Assembly (NCBI GenBank): GCA_017416425.1
Contig: JAFQCL010000021.1
Span: forward strand, 32,747-96,746
Reading direction: 5' to 3'
DNA: 64,000 nt
DNA from: Clostridia bacterium
GTDB taxonomy: Bacteria; Bacillota; Clostridia; Christensenellales; CAG-138
In this document: in pieces, positions 4,369 through 43,948 of the stretch
Layout: every line of letters begins with the position of its first letter
Numbering within the stretch: position 1 is the stretch's first letter
Notes under the pieces: model-generated
Told to the model about the DNA's origin: nothing
The model's input: the letters and a program-made list of their open reading frames with translations, nothing else
Databases searched by the model: none
Made by a program: the position numbers and the translations under genes

Positions 4369-5298
4369 TTATGCTTCGGTATTTATATCCTCCCCGATTA
4401 TATAAAGAGGTCTGCCCTTTAGTTCATCGTACATTCTGTTCATATAGACACCCTGCATGCCGAGGAATATGAATGTAAGGCTTTGCATGAAAAGCAGCCC
4501 ATCAACAGCCCAAAGCCAGGCAGGAAACGCTACGCTACAACAGCATAGCACGATGAGCGCGATAAGACCCATTCCGGAGAGCATAAGTGATGCTACGCCA
4601 ACGCCTGTTGCCAAAGTGAGAGGTTTATCCGAAAAGCCTGTTATGCCGTCCATTGCAAGACGAAGCATCTTTTTTAGCGTATATTTGGTCTTTCCCGCAT
4701 AGCGCTCATGGCGCACATACTCTACGGGAACGGCGTTATAGCCCATCCAGGCGCTCATGCCGCGGAGGAAGCGATTGTGCTCACGCATACGAAGGAATGT
4801 ATCGGCAACCTTGCGGTCGATAAGCCTGAAATCGCCGGTATCGAGCGGTATGGGATATGCGCTCATAGATCTTAGCAGCCTATAATAGCAAAACGCAGTG
4901 AATTTTTTAAGGAAGGTCTCGCCCTGACGCTTTTGGCGCTTGCCATATGCTATATCCGCGCCATCTTCCCATGCTTTTACAAGCTCGGGTATTACTTCTG
5001 GTGGATCCTGAAGATCCGCATCGATTATAATAAGCGCATCGCCCTTTGCAATGTCCATGCCGGCTGTCACGGCAAGCTGATGCCCAAAATTTCTGGAGAA
5101 GGATCTTACCTTGACCTGAGGATTATTTTTTGCTATCGCGCGAAGCTCCTTCATGGTGTTATCCCTGCTGCCATCATTTATATAGATTATCTCGTAGGGA
5201 TAGCCCATTTGCTTCATTACAGCATCCATGCGCTCAAATGATACACCGATTACCTCCTGCTCATTAAATACAGGCACTATGAGTGATAATGATTTCAT
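4369..5298 (-). CDS. GT2 polyprenyl-phosphate glycosyltransferase (GtrB/YkcC-like); alternative in-frame ATG at 5310
   Basis: IVPVFNE, NDGSRD, FSRNFGHQ, IIDADLQDPP, GDFRLIDR, two C-terminal TM helices. Confidence 0.92.
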   Translation of the reverse strand: MKSLSLIVPVFNEQEVIGVSFERMDAVMKQMGYPYEIIYINDGSRDNTMKELRAIAKNNPQVKVRSFSRNFGHQLAVTAGMDIAKGDALIIIDADLQDPPEVIPELVKAWEDGADIAYGKRQKRQGETFLKKFTAFCYYRLLRSMSAYPIPLDTGDFRLIDRKVADTFLRMREHNRFLRGMSAWMGYNAVPVEYVRHERYAGKTKYTLKKMLRLAMDGITGFSDKPLTLATGVGVASLMLSGMGLIALIVLCCCSVAFPAWLWAVDGLLFMQSLTFIFLGMQGVYMNRMYDELKGRPLYIIGEDINTEA

Positions 5299-5432
5299 AA
5301 CTGCGACCATTACTTTCGCCCGGCGAAAGTTTCCTTTCTTGTGGAATTGGGACTGGTTTTGTGCTTGCGCAAAATCGCGGCCGGAAGGCTTTTGAAGTTA
5401 CAAAACACGGTTTGAAAATTTATTTTCAAACT
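5299..5432 (-). repeat. Start-codon-adjacent structured element, copy A
   Basis: Minus strand AGTTTGAAAATAAATTTTCAAACCGTG...CAGTCCCAATTCCACAAGAAAGGAAACTTTCGCCGGGCGAAAGTAATGGTCGCAGTT-ATG; same core at 16818, 19391, 28648, 35266. Confidence 0.9.
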
Positions 5433-5553
5433 TCCTCCGTAAAAGCTTTTTTTAGTATAGCACATAGTATTTGAAATATCAATCAAAGTGGGAAAATGTT
5501 TTCAAATGTAATTTTCCGGAAAAATATGGCACTAAAAAAACGAAAAAAATGAC

Positions 5554-16100: not shown

Positions 16101-16817
16101 GTCTTCGAATTTCACATCATCTATTATGGTATTGAATGTGGTATGTCTGCAATGATCCGACCAGTAGGTATCTATCATCTTTATTTCGGTGATGGTTGGA
16201 TTTCTGTTTTCCGACACGAAATAATCTTTGCAGAATCTTATGTCATCGATATCCATGGCAAGCCCAAGCTTTGAAATGAGCGAGGAAAGCGCCTCATCAT
16301 CCATATCAATAAAGCCCTCCATGGTATCAACGTCCGTGGGAAGCTCATATCGCATGGAAAGCGTATCATATGGAAGAAGTGTTGCCTCTCTGCTTTCTAC
16401 CGGATTGATTATGTGTTTTTTTATGCGTAAAATATCCGAGGAAGAAAGCTCGCCCTTAAGCAGATACACCTTTGCGGAGCGCACAAGGGGCTTATCGCTT
16501 TTAGATATGAGCTGTATGCACTGCGCGGCACTGTCCGCGCGCTGGTCAAACTGACCGGGCAGATATTCGACTGCGAAGATCTCATAGCCGCTCATATCGT
16601 TTATATTAAAGTACACAATATCGGTTGCGGGCTCTGAGAATACCGTTTTACACGCATAGGAAAACAGCTCATCATCTATATTTTCAATATCATAGCGGTT
16701 TAGAATGCGAAGCTCGCTAAGCCCCTTTATGCCAAAAAGCGTTCTTATATCGGCGGCTAAAGAAGCGGCTTCGGCCGCGAAGTCGGCCTTTTTTTCAACA
16801 TATACTCTGTAAACCAT
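13125..16817 (-). CDS. purL: Phosphoribosylformylglycinamidine synthase (large fused type); alternative in-frame ATG 16829
   Basis: YWSDHCRH, KNETHNHPTEIEPFGGAAT, DFGAGG, C-terminal glutaminase GICNGFQ and GHSER. Confidence 0.97.
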   Translation of the reverse strand: MVYRVYVEKKADFAAEAASLAADIRTLFGIKGLSELRILNRYDIENIDDELFSYACKTVFSEPATDIVYFNINDMSGYEIFAVEYLPGQFDQRADSAAQCIQLISKSDKPLVRSAKVYLLKGELSSSDILRIKKHIINPVESREATLLPYDTLSMRYELPTDVDTMEGFIDMDDEALSSLISKLGLAMDIDDIRFCKDYFVSENRNPTITEIKMIDTYWSDHCRHTTFNTIIDDVKFEDPLLEAAYERYLATRDELSRNKPICLMDIATIATKHLKVNGMLDGLDESDEINACTVKIKVQTSKGDEDWLLLFKNETHNHPTEIEPFGGAATCVGGAIRDPLSGRSYVYAAMRVTGAADPLTPIEDTIPGKLPQRKIVTTAANGYSSYGNQIGIATGLVDELYHPGYAAKRMEIGAVIAAAPRENVRRESPVPGDAVILIGGRTGRDGCGGATGSSKSHTVESLTTCGAEVQKGNAPEERKLQRLFRKPEASRLIKRCNDFGAGGVSVAIGELADGLIIDLNKVPKKYEGLDGTELAISESQERMAVVVDPMDVERFLELALSENLEATVVAAVTEEKRLILNWNGKRIVDLSREFLNSNGASKHIIIAPKAPESYKKPIETDFHEGYTKLAKSLSCCSRRGLSERFDSTIGSGTVLMPFGGKYQNTPIQSMVHLIPVENDTTDTCSFMSYGYNPYIAEKSPYHSAYLAVIESVSKLIATGASFSDVYLTFQEYFLKLKRDEKRWGLPFAALLGAFMAQMELKIAAIGGKDSMSGTFENLNVPPTLVSFAVTTGNANEVISPEFKRAGNTVCHIAPLYDEQGLPVTESLLSVFSTVTELIRSGKVISAYTPTIGGVAEAVMKMCFGNMLGFRYDDDLALNDIFDYSYGSFVLELTDDTIVGRKLGQITDKDEISLNRDSVSLSKLLCEYEGKLEPIYTCNDVKQEGTPRLFSYVHDAPCKASVSCASPRVLIPVFPGTNCEYDSAKAMRQAGASPEVFVIKNLRPDDVSDSVREFAKRISQSQIIMIPGGFSGGDEPDGSGKFITAFFRNGAIKDEVHRLLKQRDGLMLGICNGFQALIKLGLVPYGEIIDTTEHCPTLTYNRISRHQSMIVKTRVASNKSPWLMGASVGDVFSVPISHGEGRFICSEDELLRLSSNGQIATQYVDENNIPTMDIRYNPNGSIGAVEGILSPDGRIFGKMGHSERTATTLYKNVYGNYDIGIFRSAVEYFK

Positions 16818-16920
16818 AATTACGACCATAGCTTTCATACAGCGAAAATCACAGGATTTCGCTGGGCGAAAGCTTCCTTTCTTGTGGAATTGGGACTGAT
16901 TGAAAATTTGTTTTCAAACT
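16818..16920 (-). repeat. Start-codon-adjacent structured element, copy B (fills the entire purD-purL gap)
   Basis: AGTTTGAAAACAAATTTTCAATCAGTCCCAATTCCACAAGAAAGGAAGCTTTCG...GAAAGCTATGGTCGTAATT-ATG. Confidence 0.9.
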
Positions 16921-18183
16921 TCACCTTAGGGCATTTAACGCGGCGCTTCCTATATCACGCCTGAAGTATGCGTTTTTAAAATGGGTCTTTTCTGTCGCGT
17001 CATAGGCCTTCTTAATAGCGGCTTCAAGAGTATCTGCCGTTGCCGTAACGCCAAGAACGCGCCCTCCCGCTGTGAGAAGCTTTCCGTCATCAAGCCTTGC
17101 GCCTGCTATAAACACGTTTACATCCGAGTCTGGGAGAGTTATTTCAAAGCCGGACTCATATTTTGAAGGATATCCGCTTGATGCCATTATAACACAGCAG
17201 GCATGCTTATTTGAAAAACGCACATCCGCATCTGAAAGGCGCTCATCCCGCACGGCACGCATTATATCAAAAAGATCGGTCTCAAGAAGACTCAAAACAA
17301 CCTGAGTCTCCGGGTCTCCGAACCTGCAATTATATTCGATCACCATGGGGCCCTTATTTGTAAGCATGAGACCGAAATAAAGGCAGCCTTTAAAGGGTCT
17401 TCCCTCGGCATTCATGGCATTCATGGTTGGGAGGAATATCGTTTCCATGCAGGTTTTTGCGATATCCTCCGTATAATAGGGGTTGGGGGCTATGGTTCCC
17501 ATTCCGCCGGTATTAAGACCGGTATCACCCTCTCCGATGCGCTTATGATCCATCGAGGACACCATGGGCACTATCGTTTTTCCATCGGTAAAAGTAAGCA
17601 CCGACACTTCGGGTCCGGTTAAAAATTCTTCGATAACGATACGCCTGCCGCTTGCGCCAAAAGCGCCATCCTCCAGCATGGATATTATGGCGTTTTCGGC
17701 TTTTTGATGGGTATTTGCTATAATAACGCCCTTTCCGAGCGCAAGACCATCCGCTTTTATTACGATGGGAAGGGGCTTATCCTTTATGTACTCAAGCGCC
17801 GCTTCCGTATCGCAAAATACCTCATAAGCAGCGGTAGGGATGGCGTATTTTTTCATAAGCGCCTTTGCGAATGCTTTGCTGCTTTCGATCTCGGCGGCCG
17901 CCTTATAAGGTCCAAAAGCGGGTATACCCATGGCCTCAAGCGCATCGACAGCGCCGAGCGCCAAAGGATCATCGGGCGTTACTACGGCAAAGCCTATGTC
18001 GTTTTTTGCCGCAAATTCAGTGATCTTTTCGATATCGGTGGCCTTTATGGGGATACAGGTGGCTTCCTTGGCCATTCCGCCGTTTCCCGGGAGCACAAAT
18101 ATCTCCTCTATCGTATCATTTTCAAGAAGCTTTTTTACGATGGCGTGCTCTCTGCCTCCGCTGCCTATTACCATGATCTTCAT
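16921..18183 (-). CDS. purD: Phosphoribosylamine-glycine ligase
   Basis: GSGGREHA, KADGLALGKGV, NTGGMG, EYNCRFGDPE. Confidence 0.98.
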   Translation of the reverse strand: MKIMVIGSGGREHAIVKKLLENDTIEEIFVLPGNGGMAKEATCIPIKATDIEKITEFAAKNDIGFAVVTPDDPLALGAVDALEAMGIPAFGPYKAAAEIESSKAFAKALMKKYAIPTAAYEVFCDTEAALEYIKDKPLPIVIKADGLALGKGVIIANTHQKAENAIISMLEDGAFGASGRRIVIEEFLTGPEVSVLTFTDGKTIVPMVSSMDHKRIGEGDTGLNTGGMGTIAPNPYYTEDIAKTCMETIFLPTMNAMNAEGRPFKGCLYFGLMLTNKGPMVIEYNCRFGDPETQVVLSLLETDLFDIMRAVRDERLSDADVRFSNKHACCVIMASSGYPSKYESGFEITLPDSDVNVFIAGARLDDGKLLTAGGRVLGVTATADTLEAAIKKAYDATEKTHFKNAYFRRDIGSAALNALR

Positions 18184-18205: not shown

Positions 18206-19390
18206 TTAATGGTGGAACAAACGCATGCCGGTCATGGCCATGGCGATATCAAACATATCGCAGCAGGCTATAACATCATCATCACGCAAAGAGCCTCCGG
18301 GCTGTGCTATATAGGATACCCCGCTCTTTGCGGCACGCTCTATATTGTCCGCAAATGGGAAGAAGGCGTCGCTTGCAAGGCATACGCCCGATATGCCGCC
18401 AAGGTACTCACGCTTTTCCTCGGACGTAAACGGGATGGGCTGAGCGGTAAAATATTTCTGCCACTGACCGTCTGCCGTGACATCCTCGGGACAGTCGGAT
18501 ACGAATACATCTATCACGTTATTTTTAACCGCTCTGTCAAGCTTATCTATAAATGGCAGGTTAAGCACTCTTTCATGCTGACGAAGGTGCCAGGCATCGG
18601 CTTTGCTTGCGGCAAGCCTTGTGCAGTGTATTCTGGACTGCTGACCTGCGCCTACGCCTATAGCCTGACCGTCATACGCGAAGCATACGGAATTTGACTG
18701 GGTATATTTAAGTGTAATGAGCGCGATAACAAGGTCACGCTTTTTGTCATCCGGGATATTTTTATTTGCGGTGACGACATTTGAAAGCAGCTTCTGGTTT
18801 ATTTCAAACTCATTTCTGCCCTGCTCAAATGTGATTCCAAACACCTGCTTACGCTCTATCGGCATAGGCTTATAGTCAGGGTCGATCTGAATGATATTGT
18901 AGCCGCCCTGCTTTTTCTTTGAAAGTATCTCAAGCGCCTTTTCACTGTATCCGGGCGCGATAACTCCGTCCGATACCTCACGCTTTATTATCCTTGCCGT
19001 TACTTCATCGCAAGGCTCGGATAATGCTATCCAGTCGCCGAAGGAGGACATGCGGTCGGTGCCTCTTGCCCTTGCGTAAGCGCAGGCGAGCGGAGATTCG
19101 TCAAGCCCCTTTATATCATCGACAAAGCATGCCTTTTTAAGCTTTTCATCAAGCGGGAGGCCTATTGCGGCAGAGGTCGGGCTTACGTGCTTAAAAGACG
19201 TTGCGGTGGGAAGACCGAGCGCCTTTTTTATCTCAAAAACAAGCTGCCAGCTATTTAGGGCGTCTAAAAAGTTTATATAGCCGGGTCTGCCGTTTAATAT
19301 CCGCAAAGGGAGTTCTTCTCCGTTTTCCATGAATATTCGTGCCGGCTTCTGGTTCGGATTACAGCCGTATTTAAGTTCAAATTCCTTCAT
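18206..19390 (-). CDS. purH: AICAR transformylase (PurH transformylase domain only)
   Basis: LKYGCNPNQ, SFKHVSP, KYTQSNSV, GAGQQSR, SDAFFPF, QPGGS, RLFHH; no N-terminal IMPCH domain. Confidence 0.93.
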   Translation of the reverse strand: MKEFELKYGCNPNQKPARIFMENGEELPLRILNGRPGYINFLDALNSWQLVFEIKKALGLPTATSFKHVSPTSAAIGLPLDEKLKKACFVDDIKGLDESPLACAYARARGTDRMSSFGDWIALSEPCDEVTARIIKREVSDGVIAPGYSEKALEILSKKKQGGYNIIQIDPDYKPMPIERKQVFGITFEQGRNEFEINQKLLSNVVTANKNIPDDKKRDLVIALITLKYTQSNSVCFAYDGQAIGVGAGQQSRIHCTRLAASKADAWHLRQHERVLNLPFIDKLDRAVKNNVIDVFVSDCPEDVTADGQWQKYFTAQPIPFTSEEKREYLGGISGVCLASDAFFPFADNIERAAKSGVSYIAQPGGSLRDDDVIACCDMFDIAMAMTGMRLFHH

Positions 19391-19473
19391 AAGTTCTGAC
19401 CATGACTTTTGCTGGGCAAAAGTTTCCTTTCTTGTGGAGTTGGGCTTGCGGCTTGAAAACTTATTTTCAAACT
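19391..19473 (-). repeat. Start-codon-adjacent structured element, copy C (fills the gap upstream of purH)
   Basis: AGTTTGAAAATAAGTTTTCAAGCCGCAAGCCCAACTCCACAAGAAAGGAAACTTTTGCCCAGCAAAAGTCATGGTCAGAACTT-ATG. Confidence 0.9.
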
Positions 19474-20189
19474 CACATCTCAGTGTGCTTGTTTATAAGG
19501 ATATCGCTGCATTCTTTTGTGTTTATATTGACATAGCGAACATACAGGGATATTTTGTTATCGGCATTAAGGCTGTCCCATATAAGGTTCGCGAATTCGT
19601 CCATGGAATCAGGTATTTGGATACGCCCGGGCTCACCTTTAAATGTGGGAAGCGGGCTTCCGTCATGCTCATAGGTATGTATGAAATGCCCAATTCCGCA
19701 TAGGGGCTCATAATTGAATACATAGCGATTGCACGCGGAGCCCTTCTCGTCAGCAGCCTTTAATATGCCAAGCTTATAGGTAAACGAAGCGCCATTAAGC
19801 TCAATAAGGCCGCTTATCCTCGGTGTAAAATTGGGGGCGTCGGGCTCAAAACAGCGCTCAGCCTGCGCGCTTTCAAAGCTCTTACCCAAAAGCAGATGAT
19901 TCCTTATGGTATCGGTCTGATCGCCGTTTGTGACTATTATTTTATCGCCCATATCGCGTACAGGCGCATATATGATAAGGCTTGGGTCTGAGACTTTTGA
20001 CTCGTCATAAGGATATATCATGATATCCGAGCCCTCGCGCCTAAATACGCGATTGCGGCTGTTTTCGCTTCGTCCCATTATAAAATACGCAAAAACGGCG
20101 TTTTGGCCGTCTTTGCTCATGCCGATAACGATACCTCTTCCGGGGTAGGCGTTATTATTAAGTAATGTCTCCATATTCTGTAGATCCAT
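19473..20189 (-). CDS. PurO-like IMP cyclohydrolase
   Basis: YPGRGIVIG, AYFIMGRSENSRNR, NGDQTD, EPDAPNFTPRISG; adjacent to transformylase-only PurH. Confidence 0.85.
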   Translation of the reverse strand: MDLQNMETLLNNNAYPGRGIVIGMSKDGQNAVFAYFIMGRSENSRNRVFRREGSDIMIYPYDESKVSDPSLIIYAPVRDMGDKIIVTNGDQTDTIRNHLLLGKSFESAQAERCFEPDAPNFTPRISGLIELNGASFTYKLGILKAADEKGSACNRYVFNYEPLCGIGHFIHTYEHDGSPLPTFKGEPGRIQIPDSMDEFANLIWDSLNADNKISLYVRYVNINTKECSDILINKHTEM

Positions 20190-21875: not shown

Positions 21876-23300
21876 TTACTCCTTTCCATCCCAACAATAT
21901 GTACATATTTTGCTACGGTCAAGGCCTATAGCCTCAAGCAGACCTTCAAGCGATTGGAACTCAAGGCTTTTAAGCCCGAGCTGTTTGCAAATACATTCTC
22001 TCATAGCTTTTCCGCGCTTGGTATTGCCGCTACTGTATTCGGAAATATGTTTTTCTCCCTCGGATCCCTCAAGCTCGGCGATGGTACGCCTTGCAATGAG
22101 CTCCATATCTGAGCGGCTCGATGAGAAGTTCAAATACTTACAGCCATACATTATTGGAGGACATGCCGAGCGCATGTGTACCTCCTTTGCGCCATTATTA
22201 TATAGGAATTCGACTGTTTCGCGGAGCTGAGTTCCACGTACTATGCTGTCATCCACAAAAAGAAGGCTTTTTCCTTCAATGAGTTCATGGACAGGTATCA
22301 TCTTCATCTTTGCGACCTTATTTCGCGCCGCCTGATTTGTGGGCATGAAGCTTCTTGGCCATGTAGGGGTGTATTTTATAAACGGACGCGCGAAAGGAAT
22401 GCCGCTTTCATTTGAATAACCTATCGCGTGCGGGGTTCCCGAATCCGGTACGCCGCATACATAATCTATACCCTCGCAGAGGCCATTTTTCTGATCCTCC
22501 CGGGCCATTATTTCGCCGTTTTTGGTGCGCACCACTTCAACATTTTTTCCTTCATATTTGGAATTCGGATAGCCGTAGTAGGACCAGAGGAAAGCACATA
22601 TGCGCATATCATCCTGACCTTCACGCAGCACCTCCATGCTGTCGGCGGTGAGCTTTACTATCTCGGCGGGGCGAAGGTCTCTAACATCCTCATAGCCGAG
22701 CTTTTGATACGCGAAGGACTCAAATGAAACGCAATATCCATCGGAATTTTTACCGATAAGTATGGGAAGCCTTCCGAGCTTGTCTCTTGCCGCTATTATG
22801 GAACCATCTGAATTTAGTATCAATATGGACAGGGAGCCATCGATCCGTTCTTCAGCGTATCTTATTCCCTCAACAAAACTCTTTTTTTCATTTATGAGCG
22901 CTGCGACAAGTTCTACACTGTTAATCTTGCCGCTTGTCATGGCTTCAAAGTGGATCCTGCCCGCACTTATGAGCTCATTCACAAGGGCTTCGGCATTATT
23001 GATGATCCCTATGGTGCATATGGCAAATACTCCAAGCGCTGATTTTATAAGCAGCGGCTGAGGGTCTGTATCGCTTATGCAGCCTATGCAGCTTTTTCCC
23101 TGCATTTCCATAAGATCATCTTCGAATTTGGTTCTAAAGGGAGTATTTTCTATGTTGTGAATGAATCTTACAAATTTTCCGTCATTTGTAACGGCTGCCA
23201 TGCCACCCCTTTTCGTACCGAGATGCGAGTGATAGTCCGTACCGAAAAATACGTCCATCTCACAATTTCTGTGCGATACCGCTCCAAAAAATCCGCCCAT
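21876..23300 (-). CDS. purF: Amidophosphoribosyltransferase, atypical N-terminus (MGGFFG, no Cys1)
   Basis: [23 protein letters not shown] loop, C-terminal CTYC; first gene of pur operon. Confidence 0.9.
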
Positions 23301-23360: not shown

Positions 23361-23405
23361 AAACACAAAAGGCAGTTCTACCATTTAAGAATGGATAGAA
23401 CTGCC
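23361..23405 (-). terminator. Riboswitch expression-platform terminator
   Basis: GGCAGTTCTATCCATT...AATGGTAGAACTGCC followed by TTTTGTGTTT on minus strand; overlaps aptamer 3' end. Confidence 0.9.
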
Positions 23406-23511
23406 CAGACGGTCGACAATTCAAAGTCGGCTAAGCAACATTTTTGATTTATGCTTCCTTGTGGTACTCCACACCTCAAAAATATGAGGATCCGTCAGTA
23501 ACAAAAATCAG
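23402..23511 (-). ncRNA. ZMP/ZTP (pfl) riboswitch
   Basis: Minus strand TGTTACTGACGG...GTGGAGTACCAC AAGGAAGCA...GTCGACCGTCTGGGCA; GACGG/CCGTC pseudoknot; heads purF operon containing purN, purH, folD. Confidence 0.9.
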
Positions 23512-23515
23512 AATT

Positions 23516-23590: not shown

Positions 23591-24874
23591 TTATTTAGCA
23601 TTATCCAAAAGATCATATATAAGCTCTTTCGCCTGCGTAAGACTTAGATCATTTTCCCTCGCGATGCGAGCAGCGTCCTCAAATTCTATCTTGGATACGG
23701 ATGCATGAGGCCTTTTGGCTGTTTTCATGCGAATATCACCAAGTTTCGTTTCTTTATTTATTATTTCCCGCTCCAGAACATATCTTTGGCTTGTTTCCTT
23801 TCGTATGCCAAGCGTTGTGGTGTGCTTGAAGATGGCCTTAGCGATGGCAAGTTCATCATCTTTTTTCGCAAGCACAGTGAGCATGTAGCCGGGTCTGTTC
23901 TTTTTCATATATATAGGGGTGAAATATGCGTCAAGCGCATTCTTTGCCATTATGCGCTCACATGCAAAGCCAAGATCTTCACCTGTCATATCGTCTATAC
24001 TGCAGGTAAGTAAGGCTATTGTATCGCAACAAAAGCATGAATCAGTCTCCTGCTCATAGCCTATTGCGGCGGATATGATGTTGGCGATAGGAAAATCCTT
24101 CGTGCCGGCGCCATAGCCGTTTTTTTCTATGTTCATCAAGGGCATCGTTCCGTATTCGGTCGCAAAATACGATATGAGCGCAGCGCCGGTGGGGGTGCAG
24201 AGCTCTCCTTTTATATCGCCCGCGTAGCAGGGTATGCCAAAAAGCAGCTTTAAGGTAGCCGGAGCGGGTATGGGAAGTATGCCATGGGCGCAGTGAACAT
24301 GTCCAAAGCCGGTACGGATGGGGGAGACGACTACTCTTTGGGGAGCAAGCTCCTCCATAAGCATACATACGCCAACTATATCGGCCACGGCGTCCATAGC
24401 TCCTACCTCGTGGAAATGGACGGAATGAACCTCCTTTCCATGAACCGAAGCCTCGGCCTTTGCTATGAGCTTATACACATTTTTAGCGTTAGTCTTTACG
24501 GCATCAGATACGCTTAACGAATCTATTAGGCGCTCGATATCCAAAACACCGTTGTGCTCATGATGGTGATGATGGTGTTCATGCTCGTGGTCGTGGTCAT
24601 GGTGATGTTCATGGTCATGATGATGGTGTTGATGCTCAAGCTCATGATCATTATGATCTATGCTGCGCTCCTCCTGACCGTTTACGAGCACAGAAATATG
24701 TGTGCAGCTTATACCGCATTTTTCGACAGGCTCACGGATGACATTTACATTAGGTATGCCTGCGGAGTTTAGCTTTAAAATAAAGTCATCCGCATGGGGG
24801 ACAAGCTCCATGAGAGCCGACATCAGCATATCTCCGGCTGCTCCCATGCCGCAATCTATATAAAGTGTTTTCAT
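23591..24874 (-). CDS. larC: Nickel insertase/cyclometallase LarC with His-rich tract
   Basis: GAAGDML, HFHEVGAMDAVADI, CAHGILPIPAPAT, ELCTPTGAA, MKKNRPG, TTTLGIR; poly-His/Asp/Glu tract. Confidence 0.95.
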   Translation of the reverse strand: MKTLYIDCGMGAAGDMLMSALMELVPHADDFILKLNSAGIPNVNVIREPVEKCGISCTHISVLVNGQEERSIDHNDHELEHQHHHHDHEHHHDHDHEHEHHHHHHEHNGVLDIERLIDSLSVSDAVKTNAKNVYKLIAKAEASVHGKEVHSVHFHEVGAMDAVADIVGVCMLMEELAPQRVVVSPIRTGFGHVHCAHGILPIPAPATLKLLFGIPCYAGDIKGELCTPTGAALISYFATEYGTMPLMNIEKNGYGAGTKDFPIANIISAAIGYEQETDSCFCCDTIALLTCSIDDMTGEDLGFACERIMAKNALDAYFTPIYMKKNRPGYMLTVLAKKDDELAIAKAIFKHTTTLGIRKETSQRYVLEREIINKETKLGDIRMKTAKRPHASVSKIEFEDAARIARENDLSLTQAKELIYDLLDNAK

Positions 24875-27777: not shown

Positions 27778-28647
27778 TTACGTATACCACGCCGGTATCA
27801 CCCTATTCATACCATCATACCACTCAAGTATCTCTTTTGCCTGATTTAGCATGGTAGCTATCTCCTTTTCTCCAAATGGGATAGCCCAATAGATGGAGGA
27901 TAAAGTGTTGCTTGATATATAAAGCGCGAGAAGCCCCCAGAATTCTATCGGCACGCCTCCCTCAAAATAGCCATCTACCATGCCTCGGGCAAGCGGCGGA
28001 CATTTTTGCGCGCACCAGACGATGCGGTTGAATTCCTCCCATGGATCGCCAATATCATTGCGGTTAAAATCGATTATGTATAGCTTCCCCGACTTATCTA
28101 TCATCATATTTCCTACATGATAGTCACCATGCTGGTAAGTCTGAGGGCGACCCATTAGCAGATGTCGGTGCGCGTTTATATAACGGATTAGCGCATCGCC
28201 GCCATCGTGTTTTATGGGGCACTCCGTATATCTTTTTATCTTTGCGTCCATTTTTCGTGAGAATCTGGTCTCCCAATCCTCCTGCGCGCTCGGTGCGGGA
28301 ATGGAGTGTATCTTTTTTAGTATCTGCCCGGCTTCAATGCCATAATCGTATTGTTTTTCGGCAGAAAGCAGAGGGAGCAATTCTTCAGCGTCTTTTCCAT
28401 CTATCCAGCTTTGGACGGAATATACGCCATCCTCGCATGTGCCGAATTCTACGGGCATACACATGGGAACGCCAAGAGCGGACACCTTTTGCATCATTTG
28501 AAATTCAAACGATTTTGCGTCAAACTGCTCTATGGGAGAAACGCGCAAAAGGAATCGTGTGCCGTTGTCGTCTGTGATCCTGTATTTTTTATCTCCCGAC
28601 CAGCCTTTATCGATCGGCTCTTTTACTATGGAAGTATAATCAAACAT
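27778..28647 (-). CDS. Aminoglycoside phosphotransferase (APH)-family kinase
   Basis: KGWSGDKKY, HGDYHVGN Brenner motif, IIDF. Confidence 0.85.
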   Translation of the reverse strand: MFDYTSIVKEPIDKGWSGDKKYRITDDNGTRFLLRVSPIEQFDAKSFEFQMMQKVSALGVPMCMPVEFGTCEDGVYSVQSWIDGKDAEELLPLLSAEKQYDYGIEAGQILKKIHSIPAPSAQEDWETRFSRKMDAKIKRYTECPIKHDGGDALIRYINAHRHLLMGRPQTYQHGDYHVGNMMIDKSGKLYIIDFNRNDIGDPWEEFNRIVWCAQKCPPLARGMVDGYFEGGVPIEFWGLLALYISSNTLSSIYWAIPFGEKEIATMLNQAKEILEWYDGMNRVIPAWYT

Positions 28648-28834
28648 AATTACTCTACTATTACTTTGGTACAACAAAAGTGCCAAAACACGGCTTGAAA
28701 ATTTATTACCATGACTTTTGCTGGGTTAAAGTTTCCTTTCTTGTAAAATTGGGAGTGATTTTTTGTCTGTAAAAAGTTGTGGCTCATGGACTTGAAAAGT
28801 CATAAGACACGGTTTGAAAACGCGGTTTCAATCT
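28648..28834 (-). repeat. Start-codon-adjacent structured element, copy D (diverged full copy plus partial tandem copy)
   Basis: TTGAAAC...TTTTCAAACCGTG...CCCAATTTTACAAGAAAGGAAACTTT..AAAGTCATGGTAATAA followed by a second ATTTTCAAGCCGTGTTTTG..CTTT..AAAGTAATAGTAGAGTAATT-ATG. Confidence 0.85.
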
Positions 28835-28875
28835 TTACTTCATTATCGATAGCTTGTTAAAATTTTGATCGCGGC

Positions 28876-34356: not shown

Positions 34357-35265
34357 TTGAAAATCAATATGGAAAAAGGTCTTAAAAAGAATAAAAACAG
34401 AAATATAGCCTTTCTTATCAAGCGTATACTTGCGGGTGTTGTGATAGGTATCGGCGGCATCATACCAGGGGTCAGCGGAGGCATAATGGCTGTGTCGCTT
34501 GGACTTTATAAGCCTATGCTCGATGCTGTAAGCGGTATTTTAAAAAATTTTAAAAGGAGCCTCAAGTTCCTCTTGCCGATCGCGATAGGCGGCATCGTGG
34601 GTCTTCTTGCTACATCCCACCTTGTGGAATGGGCGCTTGATGCATATCCTATACCTGTCATGTGCCTGTTTGTCGGTCTTGTTGCCGGAGGTATACCTAA
34701 TCTTATTTCAGAAGCGAATTCAAAGGGTGGGTTTAAAAAACGCTATCTTTTCGCGACATTTATAGGCGCTCTTTTTGTGTTTGGGCTTTCTTTGCTTGAA
34801 ACGCTGCTGTTTTCGAACAATCCCCTCGAATTTAACTACCTTACCGCCATGCTTACAGGAGGAATACTCGCGGTAGGAACGGTAATACCAGGCATAAGCA
34901 CATCCTTTATATTGATGTTTTTAGGACTTTACGAGCCTCTTATTGGAACTGTTAACACCGTTACCGATATTCCACTTATAATCGACATGATAGGCGGAAA
35001 CGGTGCTGCGCTTATGGCTTGGATAGATGCGCTTCTTCACATGGGATTTGTGCTTATCGGAGTAGCTGTTGTTGGACTTTTATTGGTGCTGCTTGTCAAA
35101 AAACTTATAGAAACCTATCATGGCTATGCTTACTATGCTATATTGGGCTTCCTTGGGATGTCGATGTGTCTGATATTTCCGGGCGGCGCCGCTGCCGGCA
35201 TGCTGCTCGTATTTGGCTTTATGGCGTCATTTATTATAGATAAGTTTATGAATAAAAAGGCATAG
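34357..35265 (+). CDS. DUF368 family membrane protein (start TTG 34357 or ATG 34369)
   Basis: Duplicated IPGVSGG / IPGISTS motifs, multiple TM helices. Confidence 0.88.
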   Translation: MKINMEKGLKKNKNRNIAFLIKRILAGVVIGIGGIIPGVSGGIMAVSLGLYKPMLDAVSGILKNFKRSLKFLLPIAIGGIVGLLATSHLVEWALDAYPIPVMCLFVGLVAGGIPNLISEANSKGGFKKRYLFATFIGALFVFGLSLLETLLFSNNPLEFNYLTAMLTGGILAVGTVIPGISTSFILMFLGLYEPLIGTVNTVTDIPLIIDMIGGNGAALMAWIDALLHMGFVLIGVAVVGLLLVLLVKKLIETYHGYAYYAILGFLGMSMCLIFPGGAAAGMLLVFGFMASFIIDKFMNKKA

Positions 35266-35410
35266 AGTTTCAAAATAATTTTCAAGCCGTGTTTTGTGAC
35301 CTTCGCACCATTTCGGCTGCGATTTTGTGTTTGCACAAAACCGGTCCCAATTCCACAGGAAAGGATGCTTTAATACATCAAAAGCATGTATTAAAGTTAT
35401 GGTAATAAGT
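35266..35410 (+). repeat. Start-codon-adjacent structured element, copy E (fills the DUF368-tcdA gap)
   Basis: AGTTTCAAAATAATTTTCAAGCCGTGTTTTG...GCACAAAACCGGTCCCAATTCCACAGGAAAGGATGCTTTAATACAT..ATGTATTAAAGTTATGGTAATAAGT-TTG; colinear with copy A. Confidence 0.9.
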
Positions 35411-36133
35411 TTGAAATACACAAGGGATGACTTGCTGGCGAGAACGGCTATGCTTATAGGCAAGCAAGGTCTGGATATTCTTTGGAAGAAAAGTATCGCC
35501 GTTTTTGGAGCAGGCGGCGTAGGCGGACACTGTATTGAAGCGCTTGCGCGCTGTGGGATTGGGCATATACACATAGTAGACGCGGACAGGGTGGCAGAGT
35601 CAAACCTTAACAGGCAGATATTTGCTACAAGATCCACAATAGGTATGCTGAAGGTGGATGCCGCAAGACGCAGGATAGAGGACATATCGTACTGCAACGT
35701 TACGACCGATAACATATTCGTGCTGCCCGACAATGTGTCAAGCGCAATTCCCGAGGGGATAGATTATGTGATAGACGCTATAGATACTGTCGCCGCCAAG
35801 GTCGCTCTCGCGTGCGAGGCAAAAAGAAGAGATATTCCCATAATATCCTGTATGGGTACGGGAAATAGACTGGAGCCCGGCAACCTTAGAATTACGGATA
35901 TCTATGATACAAAAGGCTGTCCGTTGGCAAGAGCTATGCGCCATGAGCTTAGAAAGAAGGGTGTGAATAAGCTTAAAGTTCTCGTATCCGATTCGCCTGT
36001 AATAAAGCCCAATATAAGCGCAGAAGGCAGGCAGCCGCCGGGAAGCATATCGTATGTACCGGCAATGGCTGGGCTTATGCTTTGCGGTACCGTTGTGTCC
36101 GAGCTGCTTGGTTGCGTCATAAAACAGGTTTGA
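35411..36133 (+). CDS. tcdA: tRNA threonylcarbamoyladenosine dehydratase (ThiF family); alternative ATG 35399
   Basis: GAGGVGG, SNLNRQ, DAIDT, MGTGNRL, CPLARAMRHELRK. Confidence 0.88.
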   Translation: MKYTRDDLLARTAMLIGKQGLDILWKKSIAVFGAGGVGGHCIEALARCGIGHIHIVDADRVAESNLNRQIFATRSTIGMLKVDAARRRIEDISYCNVTTDNIFVLPDNVSSAIPEGIDYVIDAIDTVAAKVALACEAKRRDIPIISCMGTGNRLEPGNLRITDIYDTKGCPLARAMRHELRKKGVNKLKVLVSDSPVIKPNISAEGRQPPGSISYVPAMAGLMLCGTVVSELLGCVIKQV

Positions 36134-40496: not shown

Positions 40497-40593
40497 TGGC
40501 GGGAATATGTGGGAATCGAACCCACCTAGGCAGTTTTTCACCACCATCACCGGTTTTGAAGACCGGGGGGTACACCGGTACCCATCTATTCCC
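40497..40593 (-). tRNA. selC: tRNA-Sec (UCA)
   Basis: CCGGT-CTTCAAA-ACCGG anticodon arm, 8-bp acceptor stem GGGAATA(G)/(A)TATTCCC region, long variable arm, GGTTCGATTCC, GCCA end; downstream of selAB. Confidence 0.96.
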
Positions 40594-40655: not shown

Positions 40656-42572
40656 TTATATGATGGCGGTGGAACAAAGCCGCCTGAAGTCTCCTTCCTT
40701 TTTTGTGATCCTTTCCCTGTCAAAATACTCAAGTACGGCGATAGCGTGATTTCTTGAGATCCCAATAAGACCGCGAAATTCAGCTAAAGTTAATGTATCA
40801 TGAGCAGCAAACCAGTCTGCAACTTGGATACGGATATTTTTAAAGGTATCCGCGTGATATATCACCTGACGTGAAAGCATGACAAGCTGTCCGCTTGATA
40901 TAAGGCTCTCAAGCACCTGCTTACAGTTATCTTTTTCATTAGGCGCAAATTTTTGAAATACTTCATCAGCACAAAGAGCATCAAGACCGGCATCTTTAAA
41001 CATTTTAAGCAGCTTTTCCCGAATACTCTGCTGCTTTTTCGTAAAACGCACTTCAAAATCATAAAGCGCGTATCGATCGGAAACTTTCTTGATCTTATCC
41101 TCTTTGATAAGCAGCTCAAGTATCGCATCGCATACTGCGATCTGAACCGATTGAAATAGCTTTTGCCTGAGCTCAGCAAGCCTTATACCGAAATGAAGCG
41201 GATTATCAGCGTGATATCTTTCCAATATACTGCGGCAATTTGCATAAGCAATATCAAGCGTTTTGGCTGCCATAAATCTATCGGGTAAGACCTCCAAAAC
41301 CTTTCCGCTGCCGGTGAGATCCTGAAGCCTTTCTTCAAGTACATCCTCGTTCATGCTAAGCCTATCGGCAAGCTGCTTTTTTGTTATGAGGGCAAACTTA
41401 AGCTCCGAAAGCATCTGCATAATGCGCTCATCACCCGAGCCACTTTCTTTGATTTGAAGTGAATCTATAATAGCATTGTCATTATGCTTGTGCTTTTTCG
41501 GAGCCGCATCGAGTATTATGCCTCCGCCTATCGTTTCAAGCGGGGAATAGAAGCGTATCACGAATCTGTCCCCATTTTTTGCCGCGAGCGGCTCTGTCAG
41601 ACGGAGCTGGGCATAGGCGCTTTCGCCCGGTTTAAGCTCATCCTTGCCCAGCAGAACTATTTTGCTTAAAACGACGTTTGATCCGTGATAAAGATGCACC
41701 AAAGAACCATTTTTTATTACTCGCCGTGAATTTGAAAGGCTTAAAAGCTTAACGTCAAGCATTTGTGTTATATGTACGCTGCCAGGTTTTACAACTACAT
41801 TGCCGCGTTTTATATCGGTTTTTTTTATGCCCGCAAGATTTATGGCAACACGCTGACCTGCATAGGCGATTTTTACGTCACTTCCATGCACCTGAATATT
41901 ACGTATCTTAGCGCCAAGCCCCGATGGAGCTACTTCTATCGTGTCATCCTCATGTATAAAGCCCTCGATCAGTGTTCCGGTTACGACTGTGCCAAATCCG
42001 TCTACGGAAAATACACGGTCTATGGGAAGACGAAAGGGTATCCTTATATCCTTCTTTGCAGCGGCAAGCACCAGCTTAGAAAGCTCATCACGCAGCTTTA
42101 CGATACCGCTGCCTGTGTGCGCCGATACGGGTAATATGGGTTTATCTTCAAGGAATGTGCCTCTTACATGCTCCTTTATGTCATCCGTAAGCATAGCCAG
42201 CCATTCGGGATCTACAATATCGGTCTTTGTTATAACAACAAGACCGTCATTTATGCCAAGAAGACTCAGTATCCCCATGTGCTCTACGGTCTGAGGCATG
42301 AAGCCCTCATCGGCGGCTACCACAAGCATCGCAAGGTCAATGCCGCCCGCGCCCGCCAGCATATTTTTGATAAACTTCTCATGCCCCGGTACATCGATTA
42401 TGCCCGCCCTTGTTCCATCTTCAAAATCAATGTGTGCAAAACCAAGCTCAATAGTAATGCCTCTGGTTTTTTCGTCCTGTAAGCGATCGGTGTCTATACC
42501 GGTAAGCGCCTTTATGAGCATGGTTTTACCGTGATCGACATGTCCTGCAGTACCGATGATCACATTCTTCAT
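40656..42572 (-). CDS. selB: Selenocysteine-specific elongation factor
   Basis: [29 protein letters not shown]-terminal winged helices [13 protein letters not shown]. Confidence 0.97.
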
Positions 42573-43948
42573 CGCGCATATGCTCCTATCATTTCAGCGA
42601 TATAAGAAAAATCTTCATCCCAAAGCGTCCGTACATCAAGAAGGTATCTATCGCTTGTTATACGCCCTATTATGGGTCTTTCAAGGCCTCTTAACGCCTG
42701 CTCAAGCGCGTTTACACTGCATGCAGCGGGCATGATCGCAACTACATAAGCAGGAAGAAGCTGGCATGGTACGCTGCCTCCTCCAACATGGGTATTGTCT
42801 TCAATAATATCTGCGGAAAGATTTCTTTGTTGCAGCATCGTGCAGAGTTTTTCGGCTCGATTTTTAAGCTCATAGGGCGATGCGGTAAGCATGCGTAGGG
42901 TAGGTATCGTTAAAAGGGCTGATCTTGGGTCAAGGTAACTTCTAAGAGTAGCTTCAAGCGCGGCAAGCGTCATCTTGTCCACGCGAACGGCTCGCGCAAG
43001 GGGATGGGACTTCAGTTTTTCGATGTAGCGCGCTTTTCCCACTATGACACCGGCCTGAGGACCGCCAAGGAGCTTATCACCGCTGAAGCTTACTATATCG
43101 ACGCCTGCTTCTATACTATCCTTTACAGTAGGTTCGTCATGTATGCCAAAGGGTCTGAGGTCGATAAGAGAGCCTGAGCCTAAATCTTGTATAAGCGGTA
43201 TATCATTTTTATGGGCAAGGTCTGAAAGCTCGCAAAGAGGCACGCTTTGTGTGAAGCCCACTATACGGAAATTGCTCGTGTGTACCTTTAAAAGCGCCTT
43301 TGTATCAGGACGTATAGCTATTGAAAAATCACGAAGATGCGTCTTATTTGTAGTTCCTACCTCATGAAGGCGGCAGGCGCACTGCTCCATTATTTCCGGC
43401 ATGCGAAACGAACCGCCTATTTCAACAAGTTCACCTCTTGAGATCACGACTTCGCCGCCGGATCCTATCGCACTTAATATTAGCAGCACCGCCGCAGCGT
43501 TGTTATTTACAACGATCGCGCTTTCAGCGCCGGTGAGCTTGCAAAGAAGGGCTTCGATATGGCTGTGTCTTGAGCCGCGTGAGCCGGAGGCAACATTATA
43601 TTCAAGCGTAGAGTATCGCTTTGCCGCGATATACGCGGCATTTGCCGCTTCATCGGAGAGACAAGCCCTGCCGAGATTGGTGTGAAGTATCACTCCTGTG
43701 CCGTTTATTACCTCTCTGAGGTTTAAAAGGGATTCTTTTTTTAAAAGTATTTTTAGCTCTGATATAATGGCTTCCATAGAGGGTAGGCTCATTATATCGC
43801 CCCTTAAAATTCCATCTCGCAGCTCATTGATGTATGTTCTTGTAAGTTCGGTGATAAGAGCGGAAGAAACATGTGGAACTTCCTTTTCAAAGCGGCGCAG
43901 AATATCGTCTATCTTGGGTATATTGCGAAGCAGCGCGTGCCTTTCCAT
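42569..43948 (-). CDS. selA: L-seryl-tRNA(Sec) selenium transferase
   Basis: VINGTGVILHTNLGRA, VNNNAAAV, EIGGSFR, FSGDKLLGGPQAG. Confidence 0.97.
   Translation of the reverse strand: MERHALLRNIPKIDDILRRFEKEVPHVSSALITELTRTYINELRDGILRGDIMSLPSMEAIISELKILLKKESLLNLREVINGTGVILHTNLGRACLSDEAANAAYIAAKRYSTLEYNVASGSRGSRHSHIEALLCKLTGAESAIVVNNNAAAVLLILSAIGSGGEVVISRGELVEIGGSFRMPEIMEQCACRLHEVGTTNKTHLRDFSIAIRPDTKALLKVHTSNFRIVGFTQSVPLCELSDLAHKNDIPLIQDLGSGSLIDLRPFGIHDEPTVKDSIEAGVDIVSFSGDKLLGGPQAGVIVGKARYIEKLKSHPLARAVRVDKMTLAALEATLRSYLDPRSALLTIPTLRMLTASPYELKNRAEKLCTMLQQRNLSADIIEDNTHVGGGSVPCQLLPAYVVAIMPAACSVNALEQALRGLERPIIGRITSDRYLLDVRTLWDEDFSYIAEMIGAYAR

Follow-up and report, generated by a model that had tools for sequence, protein, structure and literature searches.

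Correia/NEMIS, ERIC, BOX, RUP and REP/BIME are MITEs or other dispersed repeats of bacteria. Among the systems closest to the element described here, REP2 of Neisseria, along with the similar IR-A/IR-B of Borrelia (Parkhill 2000; Morelle 2003), is portrayed in the relevant section of PMC3184786 as a repeat of 120–150 bp that lacks terminal inverted repeats (TIRs), forms stem-loops, carries an RBS near its 3′ end and lies upstream of ORFs. The section of the same source on Mycobacterium presents MIRUs (Supply 1997) as G+C-rich units of 40–100 bp with tetranucleotide direct repeats and imperfect TIRs (PMC3184786). A further parallel comes from genes 38 and 25 of phage T4 (Nivinskas 1999; Malys and Nivinskas 2009), for which the passage of PMC3014915 that treats them describes a hairpin between the Shine-Dalgarno sequence (SD) and the AUG that shortens the spacing from 22 to 5 nt and from 27 to 11 nt.

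We analysed a 64,000-nt stretch (the window) of GCA_017416425.1, a 1.63 Mb genome of gut Clostridia. This genome contains 55 full or partial copies of a folded, dispersed repeat of ~135 nt (nhmmer), five of which (copies A to E) fall inside the window. A preliminary description of the window had read 5296–5438 as a host SD, an element and an ATG. The minus strand bears this out, with GGAGG (5438–5434), a 132-nt element (5433–5302), GTT and ATG (5298–5296), and is laid out as follows:

5454–5482, minus strand: promoter-like site by consensus match, TTGATA, 17 nt, TATACT with a TG extension
5434–5438, minus strand: host Shine-Dalgarno GGAGG, abutting the 5′ end of copy A
5302–5433, minus strand: copy A, from AAGTTTG to GGTCGCA, the top-scoring copy in the genome (138 bits, nhmmer)
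5410–5431, minus strand: hairpin P1, GTTTGAAAAT / ATTTTCAAAC, 9 of 9 pairs changed on both sides
5376–5397, minus strand: hairpin P2a region, 7 of 7 pairs changed on both sides, 84% of cells paired
5357–5374, minus strand: hairpin P3, TTTTGYG / CRCAAAA, 5 of 7 pairs changed on both sides
5330–5351, minus strand: near-invariant block CCCAATTCCACAAGAAAGGAAA, containing the internal SD AGAAAGGA at 5332–5339
5312–5330, minus strand: hairpin P4, ACTTTCGC / GCGAAAGT, separating the internal SD from the ATGs
5308–5310, minus strand: ATG1, in the element's conserved ATGGT, in frame and 12 nt upstream of the gene ATG
5296–5298, minus strand: ATG2, the start of the GT2 gene (4369–5298), preceded by the 3 variable bases GTT

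The putative promoter lies upstream of copy A, which would place the host SD and the entire element within the 5′ leader of the GT2 gene. Consensus matching found no promoter-like site inside copy A, the one copy scanned, and the sole such site on the strand precedes the host SD. In P1 of copy A, a TTG 4 nt past the host SD opens a frame running the length of the element, and a TGA stands in another frame. The four further copies lie where the preliminary description had placed them:

16818–16921, minus strand: copy B, in the purD–purL gap; retains P1, the SD block and P4, has an internal deletion and carries an additional P4-like hairpin
19391–19474, minus strand: copy C, before the AICARFT/IMPCHase gene (ATG 19388–19390); retains P1, the SD block and P4 but has lost much of its interior
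28648–28835, minus strand: copy D, full-length and trailed by what remains of another copy, before an APH-family gene (probable ATG 28645–28647)
35265–35410, plus strand: copy E, between an upstream ORF (stop TAG 35263–35265) and a ThiF/TcdA-like gene

Overlap with the preceding gene is seen in copy B, where the purD stop TGA covers the element's first base, and in copy C, where the TGA of the upstream ORF covers its first bases. ATG1 of copy C is out of frame, 13 nt upstream of the gene ATG. Copy E has a longer P4 and an ATG1 at 35399–35401, with a TTG (35411–35413) at the position of ATG2.

The repeat extends beyond the source genome. The covariance model matched 15 of 151 same-family genomes, in 7 of 50 genera, and five other genomes of uncultured Clostridia carry at least 92, 40, 36, 19 and 13 copies. 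Neither of two other species of the source's own genus gave a covariance-model match. BLAST with copy A against 40 relatives returned no match beyond the source genome, a blank that we attribute to limited sensitivity because the covariance model later picked up divergent copies in 14 further family genomes. One genome holds two copies that are 100% identical and stand in front of different ORFs, and pairs of copies 88–96% identical also precede different genes. Source-genome copies are old, their top pairwise identity being 0.83, and current activity in the source genome is not evidenced. The functions of 20 downstream genes are unrelated to one another and insertion sites are unshared between genomes, so the coherent downstream functions and conserved loci typical of a riboswitch were not found. 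Rfam 15 at gathering scores left the element unmatched across the whole 64-kb window; at E values up to 10, the interval 5200–5520 yielded nothing except three sub-threshold chance hits, and none of the Rfam ribozyme or intron families matched. The repeat family is absent from the Rfam catalogue, and a search of full-text literature (article text) found no description of such an element in Clostridia.

Orthologous loci in other genomes were then compared with those occupied here. All 10 purL and purH sites of five relatives are empty, GT2 orthologue loci are without an nhmmer match in 80 of 80 cases, and none of nine purH or tcdA loci of element-bearing genomes is occupied. In reciprocal cases, 0 of 14 sites are shared. 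The orthologous sites of purL, purH, tcdA and GT2 read as a plain SD–spacer–ATG arrangement, and purL orthologues begin at the same MVY codon. The empty orthologous sites, the unshared insertion sites, the patchy taxonomic distribution and the 100%-identical copies before different genes support the interpretation, first put forward for copy A, that the element is an insertion between the host SD and the start codon. At the copy A locus, three orthologues (72–78% protein identity) read GGAGGAAGC(T/C)ATG, an empty site one base off the restored site predicted in the preliminary description. The host SD is mostly 0–1 nt from the element and 3 nt separate the element from the ATG, so the spacer rebuilt without the element is 3–4 nt, whereas native gene spacers peak at 7 nt; plain insertion thus fails to give back a typical site.

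The repeat far exceeds chance expectation, in its placement relative to genes as well. Of 51 source-genome copies that retain the 3′ module, 38 adjoin the first start codon of a same-strand ORF of at least 100 aa. Random positions do so in 7.8% of cases, and in the antisense direction none of the 51 does; an earlier, laxer ORF control had scored 0.30 at random positions, and the stricter control was used instead. Orientation matches that of the downstream gene in 38 to 45 of the 51 copies. An SD-like pentamer, defined by at least four of five matches to GGAGG, occurs within 16 nt 5′ of the element in 30 of 50 copies examined and is 0–1 nt away in 18 of these 30. The order of host SD, element and ATG holds family-wide. 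On the upstream side, 33 copies were checked: in 20, a same-strand ORF terminates either no more than 45 nt ahead of the element or inside its first 14 nt, and in 10 of the 33 the upstream gene's stop codon lies wholly or partly within those first 14 nt. Its TGA overlaps the 5′ NTG in several copies. Many copies sit in 5′ leaders and not between genes. On the downstream side, an ATG that belongs to the repeat, as in REP2, would fit the fixed 12-nt distance between ATG1 and the gene ATG (22 of 30 copies), the presence of the ATG in orphan copies and its place within the identical block of the 100%-identical pair. The shared MVY start of the purL orthologues points the other way, as do the 3 nt before the ATG, which differ between copies that are 92–96% identical. 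An origin of the ATA at −6 to −4 as native spacer was rejected, the information content being 0.10–0.16 bits in native genes versus 0.9–1.4 bits in copies.

AGTT direct repeats at the element's boundaries had been proposed to reflect a target-site duplication (TSD) or a recombination core. AGTT does stand on both sides of copy A, and the flanks quoted for other copies read as given (AAGGTGA-AGTT..AATT-ATG in copy B, AGTT..ACTT-ATG in copy C and AGTTT at both ends of copy E). The pattern is not general. Among 30 copies, a single one has AGTT directly before the ATG. Direct repeats of 3 or 4 nt flanking the element are absent from all 30 in the two main registers and occur once (k = 3) in a third. 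Flanking matches of 2 nt number 5 of 30 against 2.1 expected. The 5′ AGTT is part of the constant terminus AAGTTTG, the GTT of which pairs and covaries in P1. Copy E shows a look-alike of 11–12 nt at both ends, in which the second AGTTT is made up of spacer bases (GT), a TTG that acts as start codon at the usual 12-nt distance, and an AAA codon; element-associated genes do not favour AAA as their second codon (12% versus 11%). Microhomology between the gene start and the element's 5′ end was rejected, given this lack of AAA enrichment and of any likeness to AAGT in the 4 nt ahead of the ATG.

Four hairpins (P1, P2a, P3 and P4) are maintained by compensatory changes. Double changes affect 26 of 31 pairs in the four helices together, and 91.7% of cells are paired, in comparison with 77.7% in shuffles and 37–54% when the structure is slid along the alignment. 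For P4, 96.3% of cells are paired and 5 of 8 pairs carry double changes, with a closing pair that is A-U in 22, G-C in 30 and U-A in 1. RNAalifold on a MAFFT alignment returned only P1, P4 and an invariant UUCC/GGAA stem, and P2a and P3 required a model-based alignment, which is biased towards the given structure. The UUCC/GGAA pairing is invariant, so covariation cannot check it. No conserved helix joins the element's two ends.

The internal SD (AGAAAGGA) is invariant and survives even heavy truncation of a copy. In many copies truncation or internal deletion has left the 3′ module alone, and copies missing the 5′ half still stand in front of intact genes. In the 16S rRNA tail, read from a complete same-family genome, the 8 nt that precede the terminal A are complementary to the internal SD; the 16S 3′ end was not found in the source genome or in five element-bearing genomes. 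The near-invariant 22-nt block around the internal SD is kept across genomes and is conserved beyond the needs of an SD alone. Hairpin-less variants place the internal SD 8–12 nt from the ATG. With P4 closed, it lies ~2 nt from ATG1 and ~14 nt from ATG2, both suboptimal. P4 is thereby predicted to shorten the spacing from ~21 to 2 nt (ATG1) and from ~33 to 14 nt (ATG2), a likeness to the split initiation regions of T4; the T4 cases are single-gene arrangements and not a mobile repeat, and a corresponding function here is suggested by analogy. Predicted folds give the GGA of the internal SD, mostly paired, an unpaired probability of 0.17 and the 5′ NTG, buried within P1, one of 0.04, so the leader may repress translation. 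As read from alignments, ATG1 is missing or out of frame in ~20 of ~38 source-genome copies. The frame opened by the 5′ NTG ends beside the gene ATG in 11 of 24 copies, from several subfamilies, and is broken or runs past the ATG in the other 13. A peptide-coding gene was rejected as the main reading, since most source-genome copies are frameshifted.

Set against the described systems, the element shares with REP2 a length of ~135 nt, the lack of TIRs, internal hairpins, an RBS near the 3′ end and a position immediately before ORFs. Its consensus ends, 5′ AAGTTTGAAAAT and 3′ TTATGGTCATA, are not reverse complements as read from alignments. It differs in the host SD kept directly upstream, the four hairpins and the element-long frame from host SD to gene ATG, and the likeness is one of described features. 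REP2 is furthermore depicted in the section of PMC3184786 devoted to it as carrying its own promoter, unlike copy A, the single copy scanned. MIRUs are likened to the element by the features given in the corresponding section of that source (PMC3184786): ~40–50 copies, empty and filled orthologous sites and, for part of the copies here, intercistronic placement and small ORFs overlapping flanking stop and start codons. MIRU-like tetranucleotide direct repeats were not found at filled sites (30 copies), and here there is no 3–4 nt duplication, many copies occupy 5′ leaders and the overlapping ORF is intact in 11 of 24. More broadly, the element is MITE-like in being short, non-coding, multi-copy and structured, with filled and empty orthologous sites, co-transcription with neighbours and a lineage-specific copy number. 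It departs from MITEs in having neither TIRs nor TSDs and in its strictly sense, base-precise placement in the SD–AUG window.

Combining the observed copy number, position, orientation, empty and unshared sites, hairpin covariation and retention of the 3′ module, we favour, with a probability of roughly 0.6, a small non-autonomous dispersed repeat that has spread by sense insertion into the SD–start gap and is tolerated because it is translationally self-sufficient. So understood, it is a portable leader, selfish, and not an excising switch. It would insert into the few bases between a gene's SD and start codon, always in the sense orientation, in a patchy subset of gut Clostridia. Its first bases would provide stop codons in two frames and so end an overlapping upstream gene, and an NTG in the third frame, 4–8 nt past the host SD, would open a frame of ~45 codons in consensus-like copies that finishes within a few bases of, or overlapping, the gene ATG. 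Near the 3′ end, a hairpin after the invariant SD would bring it closer to two ATGs spaced 12 nt from each other, and the gene would start at the second. Translation is probably driven by the internal SD and hairpin as a split initiation region, by termination–reinitiation, or by both, judging from the arrangement of these signals. Spread may have occurred via DNA transposition, and the element would be mostly selfish or near-neutral; no transposase was linked to it. A more specific proposal, that the SD–AUG window itself is the integration target, with the left end 0–3 nt past the SD, the right end 3 nt before the AUG and the spacer partly replaced, strikes us as rather doubtful. If true, targeting would read translation-initiation signals, for example through an RNA-guided or RNA-mediated step or a recombinase that recognises SD-like DNA. 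The broader implication is that a selfish repeat can occupy the most constrained bases of a gene, dozens of times per genome, by supplying a replacement initiation region. Such insertions would be a source of rewired translation and of altered C-termini of upstream proteins, would amount to a naturally occurring collection of structured leaders usable in gut Clostridia, and would point to a mechanism of targeting.

That the repeat is, or later became, a cis-regulatory RNA leader, in which a trans factor (protein or small RNA) or a physical signal gates pairing at the internal SD, is a rather unlikely alternative. UUCC pairing with GGAA, or two ACUUUCGC copies competing for the GCGAAAG arm, would be examples of such gating, and mobility would have brought a number of genes under the same control module, a role also proposed for Neisseria REP2, which according to the part of PMC3184786 that covers it precedes 14 coordinately regulated genes. 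The near-invariant 22-nt block around the SD across genomes, the compensatory changes in four helices and the predicted pairing of the SD GGA are consistent with gating; the downstream genes, however, lack a shared function, genomes do not have the sites in common, many copies have been reduced to the 3′ module by truncation or deletion, UUCC/GGAA never varies and Rfam offers no match. Less probable again is a translational-coupling cassette resembling MIRUs, with ribosomes arriving from the host SD or an upstream NTGA that translate ~45 codons, of irrelevant peptide sequence, and reinitiate at the gene ATG. It draws on the host SD 4–8 nt before the NTG, on the upstream TGA that overlaps the NTG in several copies, and on the frame being open to a stop within 12 nt of, or overlapping, the ATG in 11 of 24 copies, among them consensus-like members of three subfamilies whose indel differences add up to a multiple of three; MIRU ORFs likewise overlap flanking genes in the account given in that section of PMC3184786. 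Yet the frame is interrupted or passes the ATG in 13 of 24 copies and in most source-genome copies, the NTG is buried in P1, and truncated copies without the 5′ half still precede intact genes.

An IS200/IS605-type, palindrome-associated element, moved in trans as single-stranded DNA by a Y1 (HUH) transposase, would account for the hairpins, the missing inverted repeats and duplications and the strict orientation, and the subterminal hairpins (at distances of 2 nt on the left and ~12 nt on the right) without TIR or TSD fit that type. The source genome, the only one examined in this respect, does contain a member of the Y1 family, but this sole Y1 gene (contig C23, 289–645) has in-frame stops and flanks unlike the element, no nhmmer match lies at the ends of the contigs concerned, and no cognate Y1 element with the same ends and no PF07282 (TnpB-type) match were found in that genome. 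Nor is there a constant 4–5 nt target outside the element on either side, and the orientation bias (38–45 of 51) is equally expected from selection alone; we regard this origin as very unlikely. Least probable of all, in our estimate, is the switch put forward in the preliminary description, that is, site-specific insertion at AGTT with reversible, precise excision from DNA, or removal from RNA, restoring the native RBS. The AGTT on both sides of copy A, the resemblance of its restored site to the empty orthologues and the look-alike ends of copy E speak for it. Against it stand the single copy in 30 with AGTT before the ATG, the lack of 3–4 nt flanking repeats, the location of the 5′ AGTT inside P1, the explanation of the copy E look-alike by a TTG start and an AAA codon that is not enriched, the failure of any Rfam ribozyme or intron family to match, and the lack of a conserved helix that closes the element's ends. 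Among the matches listed from four DNA metagenome runs, no junction skips 5296–5438; these runs are contigs, in which rare variants are hidden, breaks fall inside the repeat and different copies are joined, making them uninformative on excision either way. Removal would in any event seem unneeded for expression, because the element carries its own invariant SD, kept in truncated copies.

Insertion directly before start codons also creates an annotation hazard, since ORF finders misplace the starts of purL, tcdA and the APH gene here. For purL, the true start (MVY) is the ATG at 16815–16817 and not the ORF finder's 16838.

On the minus strand, window positions 5296-5438 read GGAGG, a conserved 132-nt element (5433-5302), GTT and ATG. 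The element is one of five related copies (A-E) in the window of a folded repeat of ~135 nt lying between Shine-Dalgarno (SD) and start codon.

Copies of the element in the window
5302-5433, minus: copy A, upstream of a family-2 glycosyltransferase (GT2) gene
16818-16921, minus: copy B, in the purD-purL interval
19391-19474, minus: copy C, ahead of an AICARFT/IMPCHase gene
28648-28835, minus: copy D, ahead of an APH-family gene
35265-35410, plus: copy E, ahead of a ThiF/TcdA-like gene

Iterated nhmmer searches of the source genome (G000; 1,630,055 bases, 41 contigs) recovered 55 full or partial copies. The consensus starts sharply at AAGTTTG, contains four hairpins (P1, P2a, P3 and P4, 5' to 3') and a near-invariant block, CCCAATTCCACAAGAAAGGA, and ends in TTATGGTCATA, followed by ~3 variable bases and ATG. 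The 3' part is retained in 51 copies, of which 38 directly adjoin the first same-strand start codon of an ORF of at least 100 aa, as compared to 7.8% for random positions and 0/51 in the opposite orientation; a laxer count gives 45/51. Since the repeat can be read through in frame, mechanical ORF calls at 16815-16838, 28645-28686 and 35327-35413 begin too early; the true purL start is 16817 (with the MVY also found in relatives), the probable start of the APH-family gene is 28647, and the ThiF/TcdA-like gene begins at 35399 or 35411. Composite copies (window 16818-16921 and 28648-28835; G000 contig C27:89746-89934) combine a full or partial element with the remnant of a second, often joined at short words common to both (ATAA, ACTTTCGC), and ~8 G000 copies have a second P4-like hairpin. 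A few orphan copies are followed by terminator-like hairpins. In two of these, outside the window (C2:32050-32187 and C18:100719-100862), a strong hairpin of this kind lies a few codons past the terminal ATG with no gene; one of the two keeps the element-long frame intact, and both are possible stand-alone transcripts.

The fold was examined by aligning 68 copies (61 distinct) to a covariance model with the four helices given. Pairing was observed in 91.7% of cells as compared to 77.7% in shuffles (0/500 reached 91.7%) and 37-54% when partners were slid, with both-sided changes in 26/31 pairs; fitting the alignment to the model favours the given structure in these statistics, and compensatory changes are also seen in a plain MAFFT alignment. 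In P3, TTTTGTG/CACAAAA changes to TTTGGTG/CACCAAA, while P4 is closed by A-T, G-C or T-A. The element has no match in Rfam. Read on the opposite strand, P4 followed by TTCCTTTCTT (window 5312-5340, plus reading) scores like an intrinsic terminator, so every copy could also stop antisense transcription.

The preliminary description had read the element as an insertion and proposed comparing upstream regions in relatives, where empty sites were indeed found for purL, purH, tcdA and GT2 orthologues. Five relatives (56-71% protein identity) were compared at purL and purH: each of the ten upstream regions has a plain SD, a 5-10 nt spacer and ATG, the covariance model finds no element in them, and PurL begins with the same MVY as in G000. 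None of 80 metagenomic GT2 orthologue loci (up to 84% identity) gave an nhmmer match, and the 14 loci read all have ordinary initiation sites; three of them carry GGAGGAAGC(T/C)ATG, one base off the restored site that had been predicted. Even in element-bearing genomes, 0/9 purH and tcdA orthologue loci have a copy, and reciprocally 0/14 genes behind a copy elsewhere have one in G000. Carriers are patchy (15/151 genomes and 7/50 genera of the same family; 0/2 other species of the own genus), and where present the element is multi-copy (at least 92, 40, 36, 19 and 13 copies in five other genomes). Two 100% identical copies precede different ORFs in one genome, and pairs 88-96% identical sit ahead of unrelated genes. 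The empty and non-shared sites, the patchiness and the identical copies at different genes together show gain by dispersal rather than an ancestral regulator. The copies within G000 are old, with a highest pairwise identity of 0.83.

The same description took flanking AGTT repeats for a target duplication or recombination core, from which precise excision would restore the ribosome-binding site. Every flanking word it quoted is present, and the placement between SD and start is real and general, but the AGTT repeat is not a general feature. The 5' AGTT belongs to the constant terminus of the element, its GTT pairing and covarying inside P1, and AGTT directly precedes ATG in 1/30 copies. In the two main registers 0/30 copies are flanked by repeats of 3-4 nt, and in a third 1/30 (k=3); 2-nt matches number 5/30 against 2.1 expected. 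In copy E, the second AGTTT reads as GT, the TTG start at its canonical 12-nt position and AAA, and AAA second codons are not enriched. There is thus no general duplication or core. Excision likewise lacks support. Among the DNA-run contig rows listed, no junction skips the element, and contigs break within the repeat, so that no inference is drawn from them. The host SD lies 0-1 nt from the element in 18/30 copies with a clear SD and only the ~3 variable bases precede ATG, while native spacers peak at 7 nt; the ATA conserved at -6 to -4 is not characteristic of native genes. Either insertion loses or replaces spacer bases, or the first bases of the element stand in for the spacer, which the earlier reconstruction of copy A fits.

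An internal SD, AGAAAGGA, is invariant among aligned copies and complementary to eight bases of the 16S tail, as read from a complete same-family genome. Every truncated copy keeps it together with P4 and the ATGs. With P4 closed, it lies ~2 nt from the conserved ATG of the element (ATG1) and ~14 nt from that of the gene (ATG2), an arrangement similar to that of T4 genes 38 and 25, with their split initiation regions (PMC3014915); in variants without P4 it lies 8-12 nt from ATG. The two ATGs are 12 nt apart in 22/30 copies. By inspection, about half of the G000 copies lack ATG1 or have it in another frame, so the general start is ATG2. P1 contains NTGA, and in 10/33 copies the upstream gene ends at this TGA or at a TAA close by. 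From the NTG, 4-8 nt downstream of the host SD, runs a frame that overlaps the gene's ATG or stops within 12 nt of it in 11/24 copies, including consensus-like members of three subfamilies. Translational coupling of the MIRU kind is possible by this route but cannot be essential, since the frame is broken in 13/24 copies and in most G000 copies. Predicted folds keep the GGA of the internal SD largely paired (unpaired probability 0.17) and bury the NTG (0.04); the leader may reduce translation or make it conditional.

By the descriptions in PMC3184786, Neisseria REP2, Borrelia IR-A/B and MIRU come closest among known elements. REP2 and the Borrelia repeats, similar in size to the Clostridia element, have stem-loops but no terminal inverted repeats (TIRs), carry a ribosome-binding site and ATG, and are fused to ORFs; MIRUs are intercistronic, contain small overlapping ORFs and have filled and empty sites. 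As compared to these as described there, the Clostridia element lands inside the SD-AUG window, retains the host SD, has four hairpins, and lacks direct repeats and a promoter (copy A scanned). A consensus match places a promoter-like site upstream of copy A and none inside this one copy. A hairpin near each end, with no TIR and no target-site duplication, is compatible with single-strand HUH transposition, without showing it. G000 has a single Y1 transposase gene, which is broken and whose ends show no relation to the element. This IS200-like gene (C23:289-645, with in-frame stops) and two fragments cut by contig ends (C24:8392-8469 and C29:23252-23329) are inserted just past terminator-like hairpins, and no TnpB-type domain was found in G000.

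Twenty genes behind copies have unrelated functions, from glycosyltransferases and purine synthesis to an aquaporin, kinases, ParB and biotin carboxylase, among others; the copies are probably neither a regulon nor a switch. A ZMP/ZTP riboswitch (pfl motif; 23396-23512, minus; 51.4 bits against a gathering score of 39) lies in the purine-gene cluster, a short way before the start of ORF 21876-23300 (minus), so purine control here is served by a known riboswitch of its own, distinct from the repeat. Elsewhere in the window, short-period CAT/CAC-rich direct repeats at 24555-24656 within ORF 23591-24874 (minus) suggest a histidine-rich stretch in its predicted product. A tRNA-Sec (40501-40593, minus; 73.2 bits) lies just downstream of the same-strand ORFs 40656-42572 (638 aa) and 42569-43948 (459 aa).
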